Below are positions 13,745 to 58,430 of a stretch of 64,000 bases of DNA, in pieces; the stretch's first letter is position 1; each line of letters opens with the position of its first letter. The position numbers were made by a program, and so were the translations under genes. The notes below the pieces were generated by a model. That model was not told where the DNA came from and made no database searches. It was given only the letters and a program-made list of their open reading frames with translations. This DNA comes from Escherichia coli (GTDB lineage Bacteria; Pseudomonadota; Gammaproteobacteria; Enterobacterales; Enterobacteriaceae): assembly GCF_013315695.1 (NCBI RefSeq), contig NZ_CP054353.1; one strand, 5' to 3'.

Positions 13745-13889
13745 ATACAGCGAACGCCATTGGTTTAGTTGGATATTTACTGTGCCGGACAAAAACGGTT
13801 TGCGGGGAAATCTTAGTTAAGTAGAATAACTGCGGGTGCTTGAGGCTATCTGTCTCAGGCATGAACACCAAAAGGCAGATAGAGAAAAG

Positions 13890-13953
13890 CCCCAGTTAAC
13901 ATTACGCGTCCTGCAAGACGCTTAACATTAATCTGAGGCCATATCTATGCGAC
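13890..13953 (-). ncRNA. Putative Sok-like antisense RNA of the hok locus (extent approximate)
   Basis: Reverse-strand promoter TTGACC, 18 nt, TAATCT (-35 at 13984-13989, -10 at 13960-13965) pointing across the mok-like start; 3' end not defined. Confidence 0.3.
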
Positions 13954-14006
13954 ACATAGAGATTAGCCTCTTACGGACCGAAAGGTCAAGGAGAAGCAGG
14001 CTATGA
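13947..14006 (+). CDS. mok-like leader ORF (19 codons) translationally coupled to hok
   Basis: ATG CGA CAC ... CTA TGA; its stop overlaps the hok ATG (cTATGAag). Confidence 0.35.
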   Translation: MRHIEISLLRTERSRRSRL

Positions 14007-17367: not shown

Positions 17368-17443
17368 GGCCCTTTAGCTCAGTGGTGAGAGCGAGCGACT
17401 CATAATCGCCAGGTCGCTGGTTCAAATCCAGCAAGGGCCACCA
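17368..17443 (+). tRNA. ileZ: Prophage tRNA with CAU anticodon, Ile2 (lysidine) type, ileZ-like
   Basis: GGCCCTTTAGCTCAGTGGTGAGAGCGAGCGACTCATAATCGCCAGGTCGCTGGTTCAAATCCAGCAAGGGCCACCA; close to host ileX in sequence. Confidence 0.85.
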
Positions 17444-17543: not shown

Positions 17544-17617
17544 GCGTTGTTAGCTCAGCCGGACAGAGCAATTGCCTTCTAAGCAATCGGTCACTGGTTC
17601 GAATCCAGTACAGCGCG
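17544..17617 (+). tRNA. Prophage tRNA-Arg (UCU), argO/argN-like
   Basis: Acceptor GCGTTGT/ACAGCGC, D-stem GCTC/GAGC, anticodon stem ATTGC/GCAAT with loop CTTCTAA, T-arm ACTGGTTCGAATCCAGT; no encoded CCA. Confidence 0.8.
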
Positions 17618-18084: not shown

Positions 18085-18531
18085 ATACATATCTGGATTA
18101 TCACTTGTTACGGTAAAAAGTGATTGCTTACTGTTTTTGTGAGTGGCATTGCAGCAGCCGGATAATGTCAGTGCTGGCTGACGGTGTGCTGGTGGCGGGT
18201 GTGGTGGTTGTTGCTTTCCCGTTGCTGAAAAAGAAAACGCCAGACTGTTAGCCGGGTATCAGTTAGCGGGAGAAATTTTTAAATACTTCACAATTCAGGC
18301 GGTTGACTGTTGTCTGGTTTGCGGGGAGTTTGTTAAAAGAAACTGGCATGGTGAATCCCCCTGTGCGGAGGGGCAATCAGCGAGTAGGTATATGGGATAA
18401 TCGCGGATTCAGGTGCTGGTACTGAATTCACCGGGAGGCACCCGGCACCATGCAATGGCACATAGCGCCACTCTCCAGCCCCTCTCCGGAGGGGCTGTTT
18501 ATATTGATTTTGTCAGATGTGAGTAAACTCC

Positions 18532-36564: not shown

Positions 36565-39118
36565 TCTTGTTATTGACCTTAGTCTGGATGCTGTCCGTTT
36601 CGATGAGCAGATGAGCCGGGTAAGGCGTCATTTTTCAGGTCTGGATACCGACGCCAGAAAAACCGCCAGTGCTGTTGAACAGGGCCTGAGCCGCCAGGCG
36701 CTGGCTGCACAAAAAGCAGGGATTTCCGTCGGGCAGTATAAAGCGGCCATGCGAACCCTGCCCGCACAGTTTACGGATATCGCCACGCAGCTTGCCGGTG
36801 GTCAGAATCCCTGGCTGATCCTGCTGCAACAGGGCGGTCAGGTGAAGGACTCCTTCGGCGGGATGATCCCCATGTTCAGGGGGCTTGCCGGTGCGATCAC
36901 CCTGCCGATGGTCGGGGTCACCTCGCTGGCGGTGGCGACAGGTGCGCTGGTGTACGCCTGGTACCAGGGAGATTCCACGCTTTCAGCGTTTAATAAAACT
37001 CTGGTTCTTTCCGGTAATCAGTCCGGACTGACTGCCGATCGTATGCTGACTCTCTCAAGAGCCGGGCAGGCAGCAGGGCTGACGTTTAACCAGGCGAGAG
37101 AGTCACTGGCAGCCCTGGTGAATGCCGGTGTGCGTGGTGGTGAACAGTTTGATGCCATCAACCAGAGTGTCGCGCGTTTTGCGTCTGCATCCGGTGTGGA
37201 GGTGGATAAAGTCGCTGAAGCCTTCGGGAAGCTGACCACTGACCCGACGTCGGGACTGATGGCGATGGCGCGCCAGTTCCGTAACGTGACGGCAGAGCAG
37301 ATTGCGTATGTTGCACAGCTGCAGCGTTCCGGAGACGAGGCCGGGGCATTGCAGGCGGCGAACGATATCGCCACGAAAGGCTTTGATGAGCAGACCCGTC
37401 GCCTGAAAGAAAACATGGGAACACTGGAGACCTGGGCGGATAAAACAGGGAAGGCATTCAAATCGATGTGGGATGCCATTCTGGATATCGGTCGTCCGGA
37501 ATCCTCAGCGGATATGCTCGCCAGTGCGCAGAAGGCATTTGATGAGGCGGATAAAAAATGGCAGTGGTACCAGAGCCGGAGCCAGCGCCGGGGAAAGACC
37601 TCCTCTTTTCGTGCGAACCTTCAGGGGGCATGGGATGACCGGGAAAATGCCCGTCTGGGTCTGGCAGCGGCCACGCTGCAGTCGGATATGGAAAAAGCCG
37701 GTGAACTGGCGGCAAGGGACCGGGCTGAGCGTGAGGCGTCACAGCTGAAGTATACCGGAGAGGCGCAGAAGGCGTATGAGCGCCTGCAGACGCCGCTGGA
37801 TAAATATACCGCCCGTCAGAAAGAGCTGAATAAGGCCCTGAAAGACGGAAAAATCCTGCAGGCGGATTACAACACGCTGATGGCGTCGGCAAAAAAGGAT
37901 TATGAATCGACGCTGAAAAAGCCGTCAGGTGTGAAGGTGTCTGCCGGTGAGCGCCAGGAAGACCGGGCGCATGCAGCCATGCTGGCGCTTGAAACCGAGC
38001 TCAGGACGCTGGAAAAACACAGCGGTGTGAATGAGAAAATCAGCCAGCAGCGCCGGGATTTATGGGAAGCGGAAAATCAGTATGTGGTCCTGAAAGAGGC
38101 CGCCACGAAACGGCAGTTATCTGAGCAGGAAAAATCCCTGCTGGCCCATGAGAAAGAAACGCTGGAGTACAAACGCCAGCTGGCTGAGCTGGGCGACAAG
38201 ATAGAACACCAGAAGCGGCTGAATGAGCTGGCACAGCAGGCGGCGCGGTTTGAACAGCAGCAGAGCGCGAAGCAGGCGGCAATCAGCGCAAAAGCCCGCG
38301 GCCTCACTGACCGTCAGGCGCAGCGGGAGTCGGAAGAGCAGCGCCTTCGTGAGGTGTACGGTGATAATCCGGCTGCGCTGGCGAAGGCCACATCGGCACT
38401 GAAGAACACCTGGTCTGCGGAGGAGCAGCTTCGTGGAAGCTGGATGGCCGGGATGAAGTCCGGCTGGGGCGAGTGGGCGGAAAGTGCGACGGACAGTTTT
38501 TCGCAGGTTAAAAACGCGGCCACGCAGACCTTTGACGGTATTGCACAGAATATGGCGGCGATGCTGACCGGCAGTGAGCAGAACTGGCGTGGTTTCACCC
38601 GTTCCGTGCTCTCCATGCTGACAGAGATTTTTCTGAAGCAGGCAATGGTGGGGATTGTCGGAAGTATCGGCAGCGCCATTGGCGGGGCTGTTGGTGGTGG
38701 CGCATCCGCGTCAGGCGGTACAGCCATTCAGGCTGCGGCGGCGAACTTCCATTTTGCGACCGGAGGATTTACGGGAACCGGCGGCAAATATGAGCCAGCG
38801 GGGATTGTTCACCGTGGTGAATTTGTCTTCACGAAGGAGGCAACCAGCCGGATTGGTGTCGGCAACCTGTATCGTCTGATGCGCGGGTATGCGGAAGGTG
38901 GTTATGTCGGCGGTGCCGGAAGTCCGGCGCAGATGCGGCGGGCGGAAGGTATCCGGTTTGAGCAGAACAACAGCGTGGTGATTCAGAACGACGGTATCAA
39001 CGGACAGGCCGGGCCGCAGCTGATGAAAGCGGTGTATGAGATGGCCCGTAAAGGTGCGCAGGATGAGATTCAGGCGCAGATGCGTGATGGCGGCGTATTT
39101 TCCGGAGGCAGGCGATGA
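36545..39118 (+). CDS. H: Tail tape-measure protein gpH
   Basis: 857 aa, coiled-coil-rich, lambda-H-like in order and length. Confidence 0.9.
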   Translation: MSQPVGDLVIDLSLDAVRFDEQMSRVRRHFSGLDTDARKTASAVEQGLSRQALAAQKAGISVGQYKAAMRTLPAQFTDIATQLAGGQNPWLILLQQGGQVKDSFGGMIPMFRGLAGAITLPMVGVTSLAVATGALVYAWYQGDSTLSAFNKTLVLSGNQSGLTADRMLTLSRAGQAAGLTFNQARESLAALVNAGVRGGEQFDAINQSVARFASASGVEVDKVAEAFGKLTTDPTSGLMAMARQFRNVTAEQIAYVAQLQRSGDEAGALQAANDIATKGFDEQTRRLKENMGTLETWADKTGKAFKSMWDAILDIGRPESSADMLASAQKAFDEADKKWQWYQSRSQRRGKTSSFRANLQGAWDDRENARLGLAAATLQSDMEKAGELAARDRAEREASQLKYTGEAQKAYERLQTPLDKYTARQKELNKALKDGKILQADYNTLMASAKKDYESTLKKPSGVKVSAGERQEDRAHAAMLALETELRTLEKHSGVNEKISQQRRDLWEAENQYVVLKEAATKRQLSEQEKSLLAHEKETLEYKRQLAELGDKIEHQKRLNELAQQAARFEQQQSAKQAAISAKARGLTDRQAQRESEEQRLREVYGDNPAALAKATSALKNTWSAEEQLRGSWMAGMKSGWGEWAESATDSFSQVKNAATQTFDGIAQNMAAMLTGSEQNWRGFTRSVLSMLTEIFLKQAMVGIVGSIGSAIGGAVGGGASASGGTAIQAAAANFHFATGGFTGTGGKYEPAGIVHRGEFVFTKEATSRIGVGNLYRLMRGYAEGGYVGGAGSPAQMRRAEGIRFEQNNSVVIQNDGINGQAGPQLMKAVYEMARKGAQDEIQAQMRDGGVFSGGRR

Positions 39119-39444
39119 AAACCTTTCGCTGGAAAGTGAAACCGGATATGGAGGTGAACTCGCAGCCATCGGTGCGTGAAGTGCGTTTTGGTGACGGGTA
39201 CTCACAGCGTATGGCGGCAGGGCTGAATGCTGACCTGAAAACATACAGGGTGACGCTTTCCGTGACCCGGGAGGAGGCCCGGCATCTGGAAGCGTTCCTG
39301 GCAGAGCACGGTGGCTGGAAGGCATTTTTGTGGAAGCCACCCTATGCATACCGGCAGATAAAGGTGACCTGTGCCGGGTGGTCTGCGCGGGTCGGGATGT
39401 TGCGCGTTGAGTTCAGCGCGGAGTTTAAGCAGGTGGTGAACTGA
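39115..39444 (+). CDS. M: Minor tail protein gpM
   Basis: MKTFRWKVKPDMEVNSQPSVREVRFGDGYSQRMAAGLNADLKTYRVTLSV..., lambda-M-like. Confidence 0.9.
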   Translation: MKTFRWKVKPDMEVNSQPSVREVRFGDGYSQRMAAGLNADLKTYRVTLSVTREEARHLEAFLAEHGGWKAFLWKPPYAYRQIKVTCAGWSARVGMLRVEFSAEFKQVVN

Positions 39445-40142
39445 TGCAGGATATTCGCGAAGAAAGTCTGAACGAGTCGGTTAAGTCAGAGCAGTCACCG
39501 CGGGTGGTACTCTGGGAAATCGACCTGACGGTACAGGGTGGTGAGCGGTATTTTTTCTGTAATGAGCTGAATGAAAAAGGGGAGCCGGTCACCTGGCAGG
39601 GGCGTAAGTATGAGGCATACCCGATTGACGGCAGCGGCTTTGAGATGAACGGCCGGGGCAGCAGTGCCAGACCGTCGCTGACGGTGTCCAATCTGTTCGG
39701 TCTGGTCACCGGGATGGCGGAAGACCTGCAGAGTCTGGTGGGGGCCACGGTGGTCCGCCGCCGGGTGTATGCCCGTTTTCTGGATGCGGTGAATTTCGTT
39801 GCGGGCAATCCGGAGGCGGACCCGGAGCAGGAGCTGAGTGACCGCTGGGTGGTGGAGCAGATGTCGCAGCTGACAGCCATGACGGCCTCGTTTGTGCTGG
39901 CCACACCGACCGAGACGGACGGGGCGCTGTTTCCCGGTCGCATCATGCTGGCGAACACCTGTATGTGGGATTACCGGGGAGATGAATGCGGGTATAACGG
40001 TCCTGCGGTGGCGGATGAGTTCGACAACCCCACCACGGATATCCGTAAGGACAGATGCAGCAAGTGCATGCGCGGGTGTGAGATGCGCGGCATGGTGGCT
40101 AATTTTGGCGGTTTCCTTTCCATTAACAAACTTTCGCAGTAA
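39444..40142 (+). CDS. L: Minor tail protein gpL
   Basis: MQDIREESLNESVKSEQSPRVVLWEIDLTVQGGERYFFCNELNEKGEPVTWQGRKYEAYPIDGSGFEMNG..., lambda-L-like. Confidence 0.9.
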   Translation: MQDIREESLNESVKSEQSPRVVLWEIDLTVQGGERYFFCNELNEKGEPVTWQGRKYEAYPIDGSGFEMNGRGSSARPSLTVSNLFGLVTGMAEDLQSLVGATVVRRRVYARFLDAVNFVAGNPEADPEQELSDRWVVEQMSQLTAMTASFVLATPTETDGALFPGRIMLANTCMWDYRGDECGYNGPAVADEFDNPTTDIRKDRCSKCMRGCEMRGMVANFGGFLSINKLSQ

Positions 40143-40147
40143 ATCCA

Positions 40148-40891
40148 ATGACACAGACAGAATCAGCGATTCTGGCGCATGCCCGGCGGTGTGTGCCTGC
40201 GGAGTCGTGCGGCTTAGTGGTGAGAACGCCGGAGGGGGAGCGGTATATCCCTTGTGTGAATATCTCTGCAGAGCCGGAGGCGTATTTTCGTATTGCACCG
40301 GAAGACTGGCTGCGGGCAGAGATGCAGGGGGAGATTGTGGCACTGGTCCACAGTCATCCCGGTGGGCTGCCCTGGCTGAGCGAGGCTGACCGGCGGCTGC
40401 AGATAAAAAGCGCACTGCCCTGGTGGCTGGTCTGCCGGGGTGACATTCACAAATTCCGCTGCGTGCCGCACCTGACGGGACGGCGCTTTGAGCACGGGGT
40501 GACGGACTGTTACACCCTGTTCCGGGATGCATACCATCTGGCGGGGACTGAAATGCCGGATTTTCATCGCGAGGATGACTGGTGGCGCAACGGTCAGAAC
40601 CTTTACCTGGACAATATGGCGGTCACCGGCTTTTACCGGGTGCCCCTGTCCTCTGCACAGGCGGGCGATATTCTGCTGTGCTGCTTTGGTGCTTCGGTAC
40701 CGAACCATGCCGCCATTTACTGCGGCAACGGTGAGCTGCTTCACCATCTGCCTGAACAACTGAGTAAACGGGAGAGGTATTCCGAAAAATGGCAACGACG
40801 AACGCATTCTGTCTGGCGTCACCGCCACTGGCACGCATCTGCCTTCACGGGGATTTGCAACGATTTGGCCGCCGCCTCAGCCTGTATGTGA
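40148..40891 (+). CDS. K: Tail assembly protein gpK (NlpC/P60 plus JAB/MPN-like); 3' extent uncertain because the frame runs into gpI
   Basis: MTQTESAILAHARRCVPAESCGLVVRTPEGERYIPCVNIS...HSHPGG; overlaps I by 103 nt. Confidence 0.8.
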   Translation: MTQTESAILAHARRCVPAESCGLVVRTPEGERYIPCVNISAEPEAYFRIAPEDWLRAEMQGEIVALVHSHPGGLPWLSEADRRLQIKSALPWWLVCRGDIHKFRCVPHLTGRRFEHGVTDCYTLFRDAYHLAGTEMPDFHREDDWWRNGQNLYLDNMAVTGFYRVPLSSAQAGDILLCCFGASVPNHAAIYCGNGELLHHLPEQLSKRERYSEKWQRRTHSVWRHRHWHASAFTGICNDLAAASACM

Positions 40892-41469
40892 ACACGGCAG
40901 CGGAAGCCATTCGCGCCCTGTCGATGCAGATGCCGGGCTTTCGCCGTCAGATGAACGAAGGCTGGTACCAGATACGTATTGCCGGTGATGACACGGCACC
41001 GGAGGCGGTGTATGCCCGTCTTCACGAACAGCTGGGTGAGGGAACGGTCATCCACATTGTGCCGCGACTGGCCGGGGCCGGAAAGGGTGGACTGCAGATT
41101 GTGCTGGGGGCGGCAGCCATCGTGGGCTCTTTCTTCACGGCCGGAGGCTCGATGGCGTTATGGGGTACAGCCCTGAGTGCCGGTGGTTTTTCTGCCACCA
41201 CGATGCTGTTTTCACTGGGTGCCAGCATGATACTGGGCGGAGTGGCCCAGATGCTGGCCCCGAAGGCAAAAACACCGGATTACCGCGCAACGGATAACGG
41301 CAGACAGAACACGTACTTTTCCTCGCTGGATAACATGATTGCCCAGGGGAACCCGATGCCGGTGCCTTACGGGGAAATGCTGGTTGGCTCCCGCCGTATA
41401 TCCCAGGACATCAGCACCCGTGATGAAGGCGGGGGCGGAAAGGTCGTGGTTATCGGGCGGCAGGGGTAA
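40789..41469 (+). CDS. I: Tail assembly protein gpI
   Basis: MATTNAFCLASPPLARICLHGDLQRFGRRLSLYVNTAAEAIRALSMQMPGFRRQ..., lambda-I-like. Confidence 0.85.
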   Translation: MATTNAFCLASPPLARICLHGDLQRFGRRLSLYVNTAAEAIRALSMQMPGFRRQMNEGWYQIRIAGDDTAPEAVYARLHEQLGEGTVIHIVPRLAGAGKGGLQIVLGAAAIVGSFFTAGGSMALWGTALSAGGFSATTMLFSLGASMILGGVAQMLAPKAKTPDYRATDNGRQNTYFSSLDNMIAQGNPMPVPYGEMLVGSRRISQDISTRDEGGGGKVVVIGRQG

Positions 41470-41474
41470 AAAGA

Positions 41475-41573
41475 ATAAAAAAATCCCGCAGTGATCGCGG
41501 ACAGGAACTGCGGGAGAGTTACGAAGATTAAGTGTAAGGAATTATTCTTATATCACGACAAAAAAATTAACGC
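41475..41573 (-). ncRNA. Candidate small RNA between I and J (promoter to intrinsic terminator, about 100 nt, no ORF)
   Basis: Reverse-strand TTCACA, 16 nt, TATAAT (41580-41607) then AU-rich transcript ending in hairpin CCCGCAG...CTGCGGG plus U7 (41471-41514). Confidence 0.45.
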
Positions 41574-41579
41574 AGAGAA

Positions 41580-41607
41580 ATTATACGCGCCACAGTCAGT
41601 TTGTGAA
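41580..41607 (-). promoter_or_regulatory. Near-consensus sigma70 promoter on the reverse strand in the I-J spacer
   Basis: -35 TTCACA (41607-41602), 16-nt spacer, -10 TATAAT (41585-41580). Confidence 0.45.
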
Positions 41608-41680
41608 AATGTGAAGATATTCAGAATTTTTATGCCATTACCGGTTTTAACCAACAGGATTATCGGTGGGCATGAAAGAA

Positions 41681-41715
41681 AACCCCGGTATCTGCTGATA
41701 CCGGGGTTTCTCTTT
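41681..41715 (+). terminator. Intrinsic terminator-like hairpin upstream of J
   Basis: ccccggtatc / gataccgggg stem then tttctcttt. Confidence 0.5.
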
Positions 41716-41812
41716 AGCATGGCAGAAATGTGTTTCATGCTTTTCGGGCGAAGGATATCCGACTTCTGTACGGAATGGCAAGTGGCGGTTAATTTATTCA
41801 GGGGAAGGCTGT

Positions 41813-44800
41813 ATGGGAAAAGGTGGCGGTAAGGCACACACGCCTCGTGAGGCGAAGGATAATCTCAAATCCACGCAGATGATGAGTGTGATTGATGCGA
41901 TTGGTGAGGGACCGATAGAAGGTCCGGTGAAGGGACTGCAGAGTATTCTGGTGAACAAAACCCCGCTGACGGACACGGACGGTAATCCCGTGATACACGG
42001 TGTGACTGCGGTCTGGCGTGCCGGGGAGCAGGAGCAGACACCACCGGAAGGCTTTGAGTCCTCCGGAGCTGAAACCGGACTGGGCGTGGAAGTGACGAAG
42101 GCAAAACCGGTGACGCGCACCATTACGTCCGCGAACATTGACCGCCTGCGGGTTACCTTCGGGGTGCAGTCACTGGTGCAGACCACGTCAAAGGGCGACC
42201 GTAATCCTTCCTCTGTCCGGATTCTGATTCAGTTACAGCGTAATGGCCGCTGGGTGACGGAAAAGGATGTCACCATTAACGGCAAGACCACCTCGCAGTT
42301 CCTGGCCTCGGTGATTCTGGATAATCTGCCTCCCCGGCCCTTTAACATCCGGATGGTCAGGGAGACGGCGGACAGCACCACGGACCAGCTGCAGAATAAG
42401 ACGCTGTGGTCGTCATACACCGAAATCATCGATGTGAAACAGTGCTACCCGAACACGGCCATTGTGGGGCTGCAGGTGGATGCGGAGCAGTTCGGCGGCC
42501 AGCAGATGACGGTGAACTACCATATCCGCGGTCGCATCATCCAGGTGCCGTCAAACTATGACCCGGAAAAACGCACGTACAGTGGTATCTGGGACGGCAG
42601 CCTGAAACCGGCATACAGCAACAACCCGGCCTGGTGTCTGTGGGACATGCTGACTCACCCGCGCTACGGCATGGGAAAACGTCTGGGGGCGGCGGATGTG
42701 GACAAGTGGGCGCTGTATGCCATCGGGCAGTACTGCGACCAGACGGTCCCGGATGGTTTCGGGGGGACCGAGCCGCGGATGACCTTTAATGCGTACCTGG
42801 CACAACAGCGTAAGGCGTGGGACGTTCTCAGTGATTTCTGCTCTGCGATGCGCTGTATGCCGGTATGGAACGGCCAGACGCTGACGTTCGTTCAGGACCG
42901 TCCGTCGGATGTGGTGTGGCCGTACACCAACAGCGATGTGGTGGTGGATGATAACGGCGTGGGTTTCCGCTACAGCTCCAGTGCCCTGAAGGACCGGCAC
43001 ACGGCAGTGGAGGTGAATTACACCGACCCGCAGAACGGCTGGCAGACCTCCACGGAACTGGTGGAAGACCCGGAAGCCATACTGCGCTACGGACGCAACC
43101 TGCTGAAGATGGACGCGTTCGGCTGTACCAGCCGCGGTCAGGCCCACCGTGCCGGGCTGTGGGTGATAAAGACCGAACTGCTGGAAACGCAGACGGTGGA
43201 TTTCACGCTTGGGTCACAGGGGCTGCGTCACACACCCGGTGACATCATTGAAATCTGTGATAACGACTATGCCGGGACCATGACCGGCGGACGTGTCCTG
43301 TCCATCGATGCCGCCAGCCGTACCCTGACGCTGGACCGGGAGGTGACACTGCCGGAGACCGGCACGGCCACTGTTAATCTGATTAACGGCAGCGGTAAGC
43401 CGGCGAGCGTGGCCATCACCGCACACCCCGCGCCTGACCGGATACAGGTCAGCACCCTGCCGGATGGTGTGGAGACATACGGTGTGTGGGGACTCTCCCT
43501 GCCGTCACTGCGTCGTCGCCTGTTCCGCTGTGTCTCCATCCGGGAAAACACGGACGGCACCTTTGCCATCACGGCGGTGCAGCACGTACCTGAAAAAGAA
43601 GCCATCGTGGATAACGGGGCCCGCTTTGAGCCGCAGTCAGGCACCCTGAACAGCGTTATCCCACCGGCAGTGCAGCACCTGACGGTGGAGGTGAGCGCAG
43701 CTGACGGCCAGTATCTGGCGCAGGCTAAATGGGACACGCCGCGGGTGGTGAAGGGCGTGCGCTTCAGTCTGCGCCTGACCAGTGGTAAGGGAACGGATGC
43801 CAGACTGGTGACCACCGCCATCACCGCAGACACGGAGCACCGTTTCAGCGGCCTGCCACTGGGGGAATACACCCTGACGGTGCGGGCCATTAACAGCTAC
43901 GGCCAGCAGGGCGAACCTGCGACCACCACCTTCCGGATTAACGCGCCTGCAAAACCCGCCACCATTGAGCTGACGCCGGGGTATTTTCAGATAACGGCGG
44001 TACCGGTGCTGGCGGTGTATGACCCGACGGTGCAGTTTGAATTCTGGTTCTCAGAAAAACGCATCACGAACACGGCACAGGTGGAAAAATCTGCCCGTTA
44101 TCTGGGGACCGGCAGTCAGTGGACTGTCCAGGGGAGCCGGATTAAGCCGGGGACGGATTTCTGGTTTTACGTGCGAAGCGTCAACCTGGTGGGAAAATCT
44201 GCTTTTGTGGAAGCCAGCGGGCAGCCCAGCAATGATGGTGAAGGGTATCTGGAAATTTTCCGGGGGCTGATAGATGAGACGCTTCTGGGGCAGGCACTGA
44301 AAGAGCGCATTGATGCTTCAGCGCTGCGTACGGAGGTCACGCAACTGGAAGAAGATATCCGTCAGCGGATGGACACGGATATCGCAGAAGTGACCCGGAA
44401 AATCGGGAAGGCGGAAAACAGCCTCACGCAGCTGGTTGCGAAAAAGAATGAGGACCAGACACTGGCCATCGCGCAGGTGAGCCAGAAAGTGGACCGGGTG
44501 AGCAGTGAAATCTCACAGACTGTCAGCCAGGGGCAGTCAGAAAACGCCCGACAGATAGCACAGGTCCGCCAGTACGTGGATAAAAAAGGGAGTGAAATTA
44601 CCTCGACCACGGATAAAAAGCTGGGTGACCAGGCCGTGACCATACAGCAAATCCAGCGGGTTCAGTCAGACACGCGCAATGAGCTGAATGCCATGTATAT
44701 GCTGAAGGTGCAGAAAACAAAAAACGGTATTCCCTATGTGGCCGGGATTGGCGCGGGGATTGAGGATGTTGATGGTCAGACCCTGAGTAACATTCTGCTG

Positions 44801-45505
44801 CAGGCCGATCGCATTGCGATGATTACCCCGGAGAACGGCAACACCACGCCGCTGTTTGTGGCGCAGGGGAATCAGCTGTTCATGAACGACGTGTTCCTGA
44901 AGCGACTGTTTGCGGTGAGCATCACGTCATCCGGCAATCCTCCGACGTTTTCCCTGACGCCGGATGGCAGGCTGACAGCCCGCAATGCGGATATCAGTGG
45001 AGCCATCACGGCGAATACCGGCACGCTCAATAATGTCACCATTAACGAGAACTGTGTCATCAGAGGGAAACTGTCTGCAAACCAGATTGAAGGCGATCTC
45101 GTTAAAACAGTGGGTAAGGCTTTCCCCCGTGACTCCCGTGCACCGAAGCGTTGGCCATCAGGAACCATTACCGTCAGGGTTTATGACGATCAGCCGTTTA
45201 ACCGGCAGATTGTTATTCCGGCGGTGGCTTTCAGCGGTGCCAGACATGAGCGGGAGAACAGCGATACTTATTCGTCATGCCGCCTGATAGTGAAGAAAAA
45301 CGGTGCTGAAATTTATAACCGTACCGCGATGGATAATACGCTGGTTTACAGTGGTGTTATTGATATGCCTGCTGGTCGCGGCCACATGACGCTGGAGTTT
45401 TCTGTATCAGCATGGTGGGTAAATGGCTGGTATCCCACAGCAAGTATCAGCGATTTGCTGGTTGTTGTGATGAAGAAAGCCACTGCAGGCATCACGATTA
45501 GCTGA
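41813..45505 (+). CDS. J: Central tail fiber / host specificity protein gpJ
   Basis: 1230 aa; N-terminus [52 protein letters not shown]... lambda-J-like. Confidence 0.9.
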
Positions 45506-57801: not shown

Positions 57802-58430
57802 TATGTATTCCCTTGTGATTATAATCTTCATGAATATATCAATAAGTGCTGTTATCCAAAAAAAGCACATTTGGATACTATTCTATGAAGTTCATTTTAT
57901 TTTAAAGATTACATGTAACAAATGTATTTAAAAGATTTCAAAATGTTTCTAATCTATTTAATATAATTCATAGTTATGAATTCTGAATATAAATATTCAC
58001 GAATATTATGGATATATATCAATATGTTATGAGTTGATCGAAAAGATAGGGAGTATCAATGATTGTTGCGCTAAACGGCTGGTGTGATCTCGCGCACATT
58101 AATGAAGGCATAAAAAAAAGCCGGCATCATGCCGGCCCAAAAAAATATAAACAAGACGATAAAAGGCTAATAACGGAGGCATGATGACACAGAAAAATAA
58201 AAAGGTATAATTGTAATCAGTACCAATATATTGATTGAATGAATTAATAAAGCCGAAATCAAAGATAAATAACATCGTTCAAATCGATTTTTCCTGTATT
58301 CACCGCCGTTGCGCAAAATTTATCTATTTGTTCAAAAAATGATTGAGTCTTGACTGGCTCATCCAATGTGGAAAAATGTGACTTTTATCACATAATAGTT
58401 CTAAGTCTGAATTTTCCGGGTTATCTCAAA

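Follow-up and report, generated by a model that had tools for sequence, protein, structure and literature searches.

Between tail genes I and J of the prophage carried by the window (i.e. the whole 64-kb stretch of DNA that was analysed), the minus strand harbors a short promoter-terminator unit which, judged by its sequence, is a strongly diverged and so far uncatalogued allele of PasB/EcOnc22. We place at roughly 80% the probability that this unit is an autonomous, moron-like sRNA gene (a pasB allele), whose product would be made in the lysogen and would act in trans as an Hfq-dependent regulator; the expression, size and Hfq dependence ascribed to it are those of other alleles, whose RNA body differs at ~40% of the positions. 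The proposal of an earlier note on this DNA, namely an independently transcribed antisense prophage sRNA of the kind described in EHEC, is supported by these analyses, the unit being a homologue of PasB and related to EcOnc22/23/24. What is new here is the naming of the unit, the link among three alleles, and a locus that is much more polymorphic than published.

Anatomy of the I-J spacer

The spacer (window 41470-41812) is AT-rich and lies inside GC-rich tail genes, being flanked upstream by the gene for tail assembly protein I (40888..41469, plus strand) and downstream by that for the tail tip/host specificity protein J (41813..45505, plus strand), both taken from the ORF list and from the RefSeq annotation of identical DNA in ATCC 25922. 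Such an AT-rich spacer within GC-rich tail genes is as expected of an acquired moron. Its enlargement with respect to lambda, as noted previously, is confirmed by the lengths (343 bp here vs 60 bp between lambda I and J), and the RefSeq annotation of identical DNA in many genomes places no feature within it. The predicted transcript has a GC content of 39% overall and of 29% outside the terminator (vs 58-61% in I and J), contains no ATG, and its GTG/TTG frames stay open for a few codons only, in agreement with the AU-rich, ORF-less RNA that had been described.

The near-consensus reverse-strand promoter on which the earlier note relied is present (sigma-70-type, TTCACA-16 nt-TATAAT, minus strand 41607..41580) and matches 11/12 consensus positions in the promoter scan, with the same promoter lying upstream of PasB in E2348/69. 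By itself this match is not beyond chance, as the two strands of the 64-kb window together hold two 11/12 sites, where shuffles average 0.9. The exact TTCACA-N16-TATAAT is intact in 114/117 related copies, and it is this conservation, together with the experimental detection of homologous alleles as RNAs, that lifts the promoter-terminator unit above chance. The AT-rich segment located 5' of the -35 box (41608..41636, minus strand) is 100% identical to that of phage ASU11 and nearly so in E2348/69, even though the spacers are entirely divergent past 41636, and its sequence may represent a UP element or a regulator site.

The intrinsic terminator (minus strand 41477..41514), which is also the probable (predicted) Hfq-binding module, proved as clean as had been claimed: a 7-bp stem formed by CCCGCAG (+41508-41514) and CUGCGGG (+41485-41491) is followed by an A and then by U7 (+41477-41483). 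It lies ~70 nt downstream of the promoter, folds at -15.7 kcal/mol (z = -4.1, a value equalled by 0/200 shuffles), occurs once in the 64-kb window, and its stem is invariant among 13 aligned variants. The whole predicted RNA folds modestly better than shuffles (z = -2.1), and the fold of the 13-variant alignment displays no covariation, its consensus structure consisting of the invariant terminator stem only.

With the start set 7 nt past the -10 box, the predicted primary transcript of this gene (hereafter the 'W' allele) is 97 nt long (41573->41477, minus strand), close to the ~100 nt previously proposed. The annotated 5' end of PasB (1466343) sits 15 nt downstream of the -10-predicted start in E2348/69, just past a U7 run (L002 1844-1859). 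As this end aligns to ~41558 of the window (in the alignment, the 83-nt PasB as annotated covers 41477-41558, minus strand), the mature window RNA may be ~82 nt instead of ~97-100 nt. The 83-nt PasB species may itself be a processed form, or its RNA-seq-based 5' end may be approximate.

The J-proximal part of the spacer contains a 12-bp hairpin (41681..41715, plus strand) with U-rich tails on both strands, which is present as a single copy in the 64-kb window and folds at -27.1 (plus) and -26.0 (minus) kcal/mol (z ~ -7; -7.0 on the plus strand). The forward hairpin with T-tract reported in front of J is real and very stable and looks like a terminator, but it has functional analogues in every other spacer type examined: at the corresponding place, another forward hairpin precedes a T-run in the E2348/69-type and third-type spacers, and the 60-bp I-J gap of lambda (L123 846-905) has one as well (AAACCGCC-TGCG-GGCGGTTTTGTCATTT). 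Such hairpins are a normal part of late operons, and Q-modified polymerase presumably transcribes through them; a terminator-like structure just before J seems ancestral to lambdoid late operons, and the hairpin of the window could in addition insulate the pasB promoter from antisense transcription. Among the IMG/VR loci, a clean 47-nt deletion removes the forward hairpin in L111, and L035 and L056 have 1-nt deletions in or beside it, so that the hairpin is dispensable in at least some prophages. A weak minus-strand site (TTGCCA-18-TATCCT, 41752-41781, 9/12 positions, within chance expectation) is followed ~35 nt downstream by the bidirectional hairpin, and, in spacers of the long type, could be the source of another minus-strand RNA of very small size.

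Small RNA genes are numerous in the window. DicF (6262-6313, minus strand), the sok antitoxin RNA (13834-14005, plus strand) and RseX (58113-58203, minus strand) reach the Rfam gathering score, and tRNA genes are found at 683-755, 1747-1833, 17368-17440 and 17544-17617. The only other 11/12 promoter-like site in the window (ATGACA-16-TATAAT, 58184, plus strand) overlaps the 5' end of rseX on the opposite strand and is directed away from the rseX body. Furthermore, STnc100 (18317-18506, plus strand, Rfam 132 bits) is encoded by the same prophage as the pasB-like unit; since STnc100 and PasD have been argued to share an ancestor (Zhu, Shabalina & Storz, bioRxiv 10.64898/2026.05.13.724894; hereafter Zhu 2026), two Pas-type sRNAs have relatives in this prophage.

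Relation to PasB of EPEC and EcOnc22/23/24 of EHEC

PasB (E2348CN_0006) is listed as an 83-nt RNA of prophage PP6 in EPEC E2348/69, encoded on the minus strand (NC_011601 1466343->1466261; Table S6 of Pearl Mizrahi 2021, PMC8550237), at a locus that we found to be the I-J spacer of PP6, in antisense orientation (I ends at 1466255 and J starts at 1466496). The PasB northern probe, AATCCCGCAGTGATCGCGGAGCT (Table S6, PMC8550237), matches window 41475-41494; the last 25 nt (U7 included) are identical between PasB and the window RNA, the longest U tract of PasB being 7 (Table S5, PMC8550237), and E2348/69 carries identical promoter hexamers and spacing. The two units are thus alike in their I-J slot, antisense orientation, promoter, terminator stem, YUCCWU and RAUCUUY motifs and similar length. 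They differ in the pre-terminator body, which is ~60% identical (39/65 aligned positions) and interrupted by indels, whereas the promoter region agrees at 58/63 positions; moreover, the terminator loop of the window RNA is 5 nt longer, the J-proximal halves of the two spacers are unrelated, and the spacer of the window exceeds that of E2348/69 by 103 bp.

The characters by which we would recognize a member of the PasB family, i.e. an antisense location between I and J, an own sigma-70 promoter, a GC-rich stem followed by U7 and conserved motifs that are mostly unpaired (as predicted), are all found in the window unit. The criterion of the published survey (blastn, word size 28, query coverage >75%), on the other hand, does not recover it: an 83-nt PasB query yields no match in the window at word size 28, and at word sizes 11 and 7 it retrieves the terminal 25 nt only. 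Homology to PasB consequently rests on the full-length alignment (60% in the body), the identical promoter and terminator, and synteny, and not on BLAST under the survey criterion. Since that survey searched bacterial genomes with word size 28 and required coverage >75% (for phages, the settings were word size 11 and coverage >50%; Zhu 2026), the W allele was almost certainly missed by it.

In EPEC, the size of PasB was confirmed by northern blot, its stability was Hfq-dependent, and it was more abundant under the non-activating condition (PMC8550237). Table S2 of the same source gives log2 fold changes of -6.8 and -2.4 for PasB (PMC8550237), which we take to be those of the delta-hfq comparison. 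The 'constitutive' expression suggested in the earlier note is not established, given that PasB levels in EPEC vary with condition.

Earlier evidence concerns EcOnc22, EcOnc23 and EcOnc24, which were reported as Hfq-CRAC sRNA candidates on the plus strand of Sp15, Sp14 and Sp11 of EHEC O157:H7 Sakai, with an RNA of ~85 nt by northern blot that is destabilised in delta-hfq (Tree et al. 2014, PMC4104026). The coordinates of Table S2 in Tree et al. fit the current Sakai record after a shift of ~+128 nt, upon which the CRAC peak falls on the RNA. In that record the three sites are I-J spacers (I and J being on the minus strand) that are identical to each other, each with a PasB-like unit (Sp15: L124 2192-2431; the others: L125 and L126). 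The +128-nt shift between record versions relies on the length of the older Sakai record, which we presume to be correct. The EcOnc northern probe has its complement in the PasB-like body (Sakai 2902862-2902896 and two paralogous sites), and since it maps EcOnc22/23/24 onto this body, two spacer-RNA alleles are experimentally validated.

Against the Sakai alleles the EcOnc probe aligns at 31/33 positions (local score 27), whereas against the window RNA only the AAUCUUC and CUCUCCC segments align (local score 13 vs 27); as probe complementarity fails, the window RNA is a related allele and not EcOnc22 itself. EcOnc22/23/24 resemble the window unit in their antisense I-J position, in the CCCGCAG...CUGCGGG-U7 terminator and in the AAUCUUC motif, and differ from it by another body and terminator loop and by a rearranged promoter region, in which no -35 and -10 hexamers close to consensus were found 16-18 nt apart. 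Table S6 of PMC8550237 lists no EHEC homologue for PasB, and EcOnc is not mentioned in the available portions of the 2026 Pas survey (Zhu 2026). Taken together, EcOnc22/23/24 (EHEC, 2014), PasB (EPEC, 2021) and the window allele seem to be members of a single locus family. No Rfam family was matched at E<=1 across 39000-44000, and none reached the gathering score in the spacer during the whole-window scan, which indicates that PasB is not modelled in Rfam.

Allele divergence and distribution

The divergence of the W allele is sharply delimited. In comparison to phage ASU11, whose spacer is of the same long type, the window is 96-100% identical across I, the promoter, the remaining spacer and J, and identity drops to 64-80% exactly over 41487-41579; relative to PasB, the flanks of the RNA body are 92-100% identical vs ~60% for the body itself. 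Among 120 IMG/VR loci we recognized 22 distinct variants, the commonest of which is the variant of the window (51 loci), together with recombinant bodies (L045 and L068); the allele classes combine with all three J-proximal spacer types.

Of 5426 complete E. coli genomes, 1668 contain the spacer; many Stx phages share its I-proximal half. The W-allele body occurs in 799/5426 complete E. coli genomes (vs 918/5426 for the PasB type), i.e. in ~15% of them, many being from human clinical isolates, and it is devoid of annotated features in RefSeq among the matches listed; ATCC 25922 carries an identical spacer, located around 3960.5-3960.9 kb of NZ_CP009072. A scan of species-representative genome contigs with the 19-mer terminator core returned 9 matches, 7/9 being chance matches in GC-rich genomes and the true ones lying on an E. 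albertii contig and on a contig of a 'Collinsella sp.' MAG (JAIJJM010000066.1, L137, 8.7 kb). The latter contains the pasB allele of the window (identical over the 200 nt compared) and is most likely a mis-binned Escherichia prophage contig. Full-text literature searches for sequence strings of the W and E alleles gave no matches. In the 2026 survey, PasB is characterized by 'only a few nucleotide differences' (Zhu 2026); the divergence pattern suggests that its published distribution is an undercount.

A broader reading of these patterns, to which we grant slightly less than even odds, is that the I-J junction serves as a conserved sRNA slot, in which a fixed promoter and a terminator/Hfq module frame an exchangeable body, and that W would be an undescribed regulator with a regulon of its own. 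If so, there would be at least four allele classes (the window 'W', PasB 'E', a shortened 'E3' and the EcOnc22 of Sakai) that recombine freely with neighbouring spacer types, and the published view that, of the Pas sRNAs, PasB has the lowest diversity would be an artificial result of the search at word size 28. The W allele would then stand as a predicted widespread regulator, unannotated among the RefSeq matches listed and absent from Rfam, and the I-J locus (with its conserved ends, ~60% identical body and mosaic spacers) could help in the study of sRNA seed exchange and evolution.

Proposed function, competing explanations and known systems

In the lysogen, host RNA polymerase would start at TTCACA-16-TATAAT, run against the silent late operon and stop at CCCGCAG/CUGCGGG-U7, yielding an RNA of ~97 nt (possibly trimmed to ~82 nt) that would be bound by Hfq through its hairpin and U-tail. 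Its AU-rich body, which is unpaired (above all UUCCUU and AAUCUUC), would pair with mRNAs of the host as well as accessory ones, probably in or close to their ribosome-binding sites, and would thereby alter their translation or stability. Across 13 variants, little or no variation affects the first 3-6 nt, YUCCWU, RAUCUUY or the terminator with its U7, and both motifs are predicted to be mostly unpaired (mean unpaired probability 0.56-0.96 across alleles); furthermore, UUCCUU/CUCCUU is complementary to the Shine-Dalgarno sequence. From this pattern we infer that UUCCUU and AAUCUUC constitute a candidate seed region of the window allele (minus strand 41523..41541), the motifs being kept across all allele classes. 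As for published seeds, a common target motif was found for 3/5 Pas sRNAs (Pearl Mizrahi 2021, PMC8550237), and the 2026 survey places the seed of PasB just upstream of the terminator and predicts such seeds only for PasA and PasD, hence not for PasB (Zhu 2026). Because its body is only ~60% identical to that of PasB, the W allele probably has a partly different set of targets.

We consider it unlikely that the RNA acts mainly in cis, i.e. as an antisense RNA that would control the phage's late operon and tune J/tail-tip expression through RNase III cleavage between I and J, through convergent-transcription interference, or by having the late mRNA sponge the sRNA upon induction. Its position invites such an explanation, as in all copies examined the gene sits antisense within the late operon at 7 nt from the stop codon of I, with its RNA being perfectly complementary to the late mRNA just past that codon, and a position-dependent cis role allows for a fixed position combined with a variable body. 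However, the window RNA ends at least ~240 nt from the J start, so that the ribosome-binding site of J is not covered, and a purely cis-antisense RNA does not require two unpaired motifs conserved across alleles. In induced cells, moreover, late transcripts would be expected to vastly exceed the sRNA. Action in trans is indicated by RIL-seq of the EPEC allele, in which PasB, as the second RNA in 99-100% of its chimeras, had 37 unique partners (30 of them CDS or 5'UTR, and 0/37 of the sRNA/non-coding class) that lie nearly all outside the accessory genome, accessory partners making up only 0.5-2% of the fragments, as tabulated in PMC8550237.

Two further explanations appear very improbable. One regards the spacer as a non-functional remnant, either a decayed coding gene or an orphan promoter and terminator that have been kept through hitch-hiking with the tail genes; the record of phage ASU11 does annotate a 66-aa hypothetical CDS in the J-proximal half (window 41633-41832), and one 11/12 promoter match is about what chance provides in 64 kb. 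A degraded coding remnant, which the earlier note had named as an outcome to check for, is not what we found: the RNA region is without an ORF, and the 66-aa ORF is broken in related copies by the 1-nt deletions of L035 and L056 and the 47-nt deletion of L111, which implies that it is not under coding constraint; it was accordingly rejected as a gene. Hitch-hiking is likewise hard to reconcile with a promoter kept exact in 114/117 copies and an invariant terminator, between which the body varies freely, and with the fact that two other alleles are abundant Hfq-bound RNAs. The other explanation, held to be about as improbable, sees in the unit an anti-sRNA (sponge) of the AgvB/AsxR type, whose variable body, by imitating mRNA targets, would titrate a core sRNA instead of regulating mRNAs directly. 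The architecture is indeed AgvB/AsxR-like, with a 5' body that varies and a 3' terminator module that is conserved, both carried by a lambdoid prophage, but Rfam release 15 (families RF02702 and RF02703 included) gave no match at E<=1, and the sRNA/non-coding class is absent among the 37 PasB partners. AgvB and AsxR measure 51-60 nt and are found downstream of PR', whereas the window unit lies elsewhere and is predicted to span 82-97 nt; on these three grounds (no Rfam match, other location, other size) membership in AgvB (RF02702) or AsxR (RF02703) was rejected.

The preferred interpretation, a trans-acting pasB-type sRNA gene expressed from the prophage, relates to known systems as follows. 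With AgvB and AsxR the window unit shares the modular character of a short prophage RNA whose promoter and terminator are its own, whose body varies and whose 3' end is conserved (AgvB and AsxR being Hfq-binding); it differs in that these RNAs map close to stx and the lysis genes, at the moron site downstream of PR'/Q, and possess a conserved ~42-nt 3' region. AgvB and AsxR also sponge core sRNAs, whereas the listed partners of PasB include none of the sRNA/non-coding class. With the lambdoid morons it has in common that it is an AT-rich insert among late genes, furnished with a promoter and a terminator of its own, whose expression is to be expected while the prophage is repressed; its cargo, unlike theirs, is a non-coding RNA, and transcription would run counter to the late operon. 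Elements of this kind are in themselves already known, in the form of prophage-borne, Hfq-dependent sRNAs that tie a prophage to the regulation of its host.
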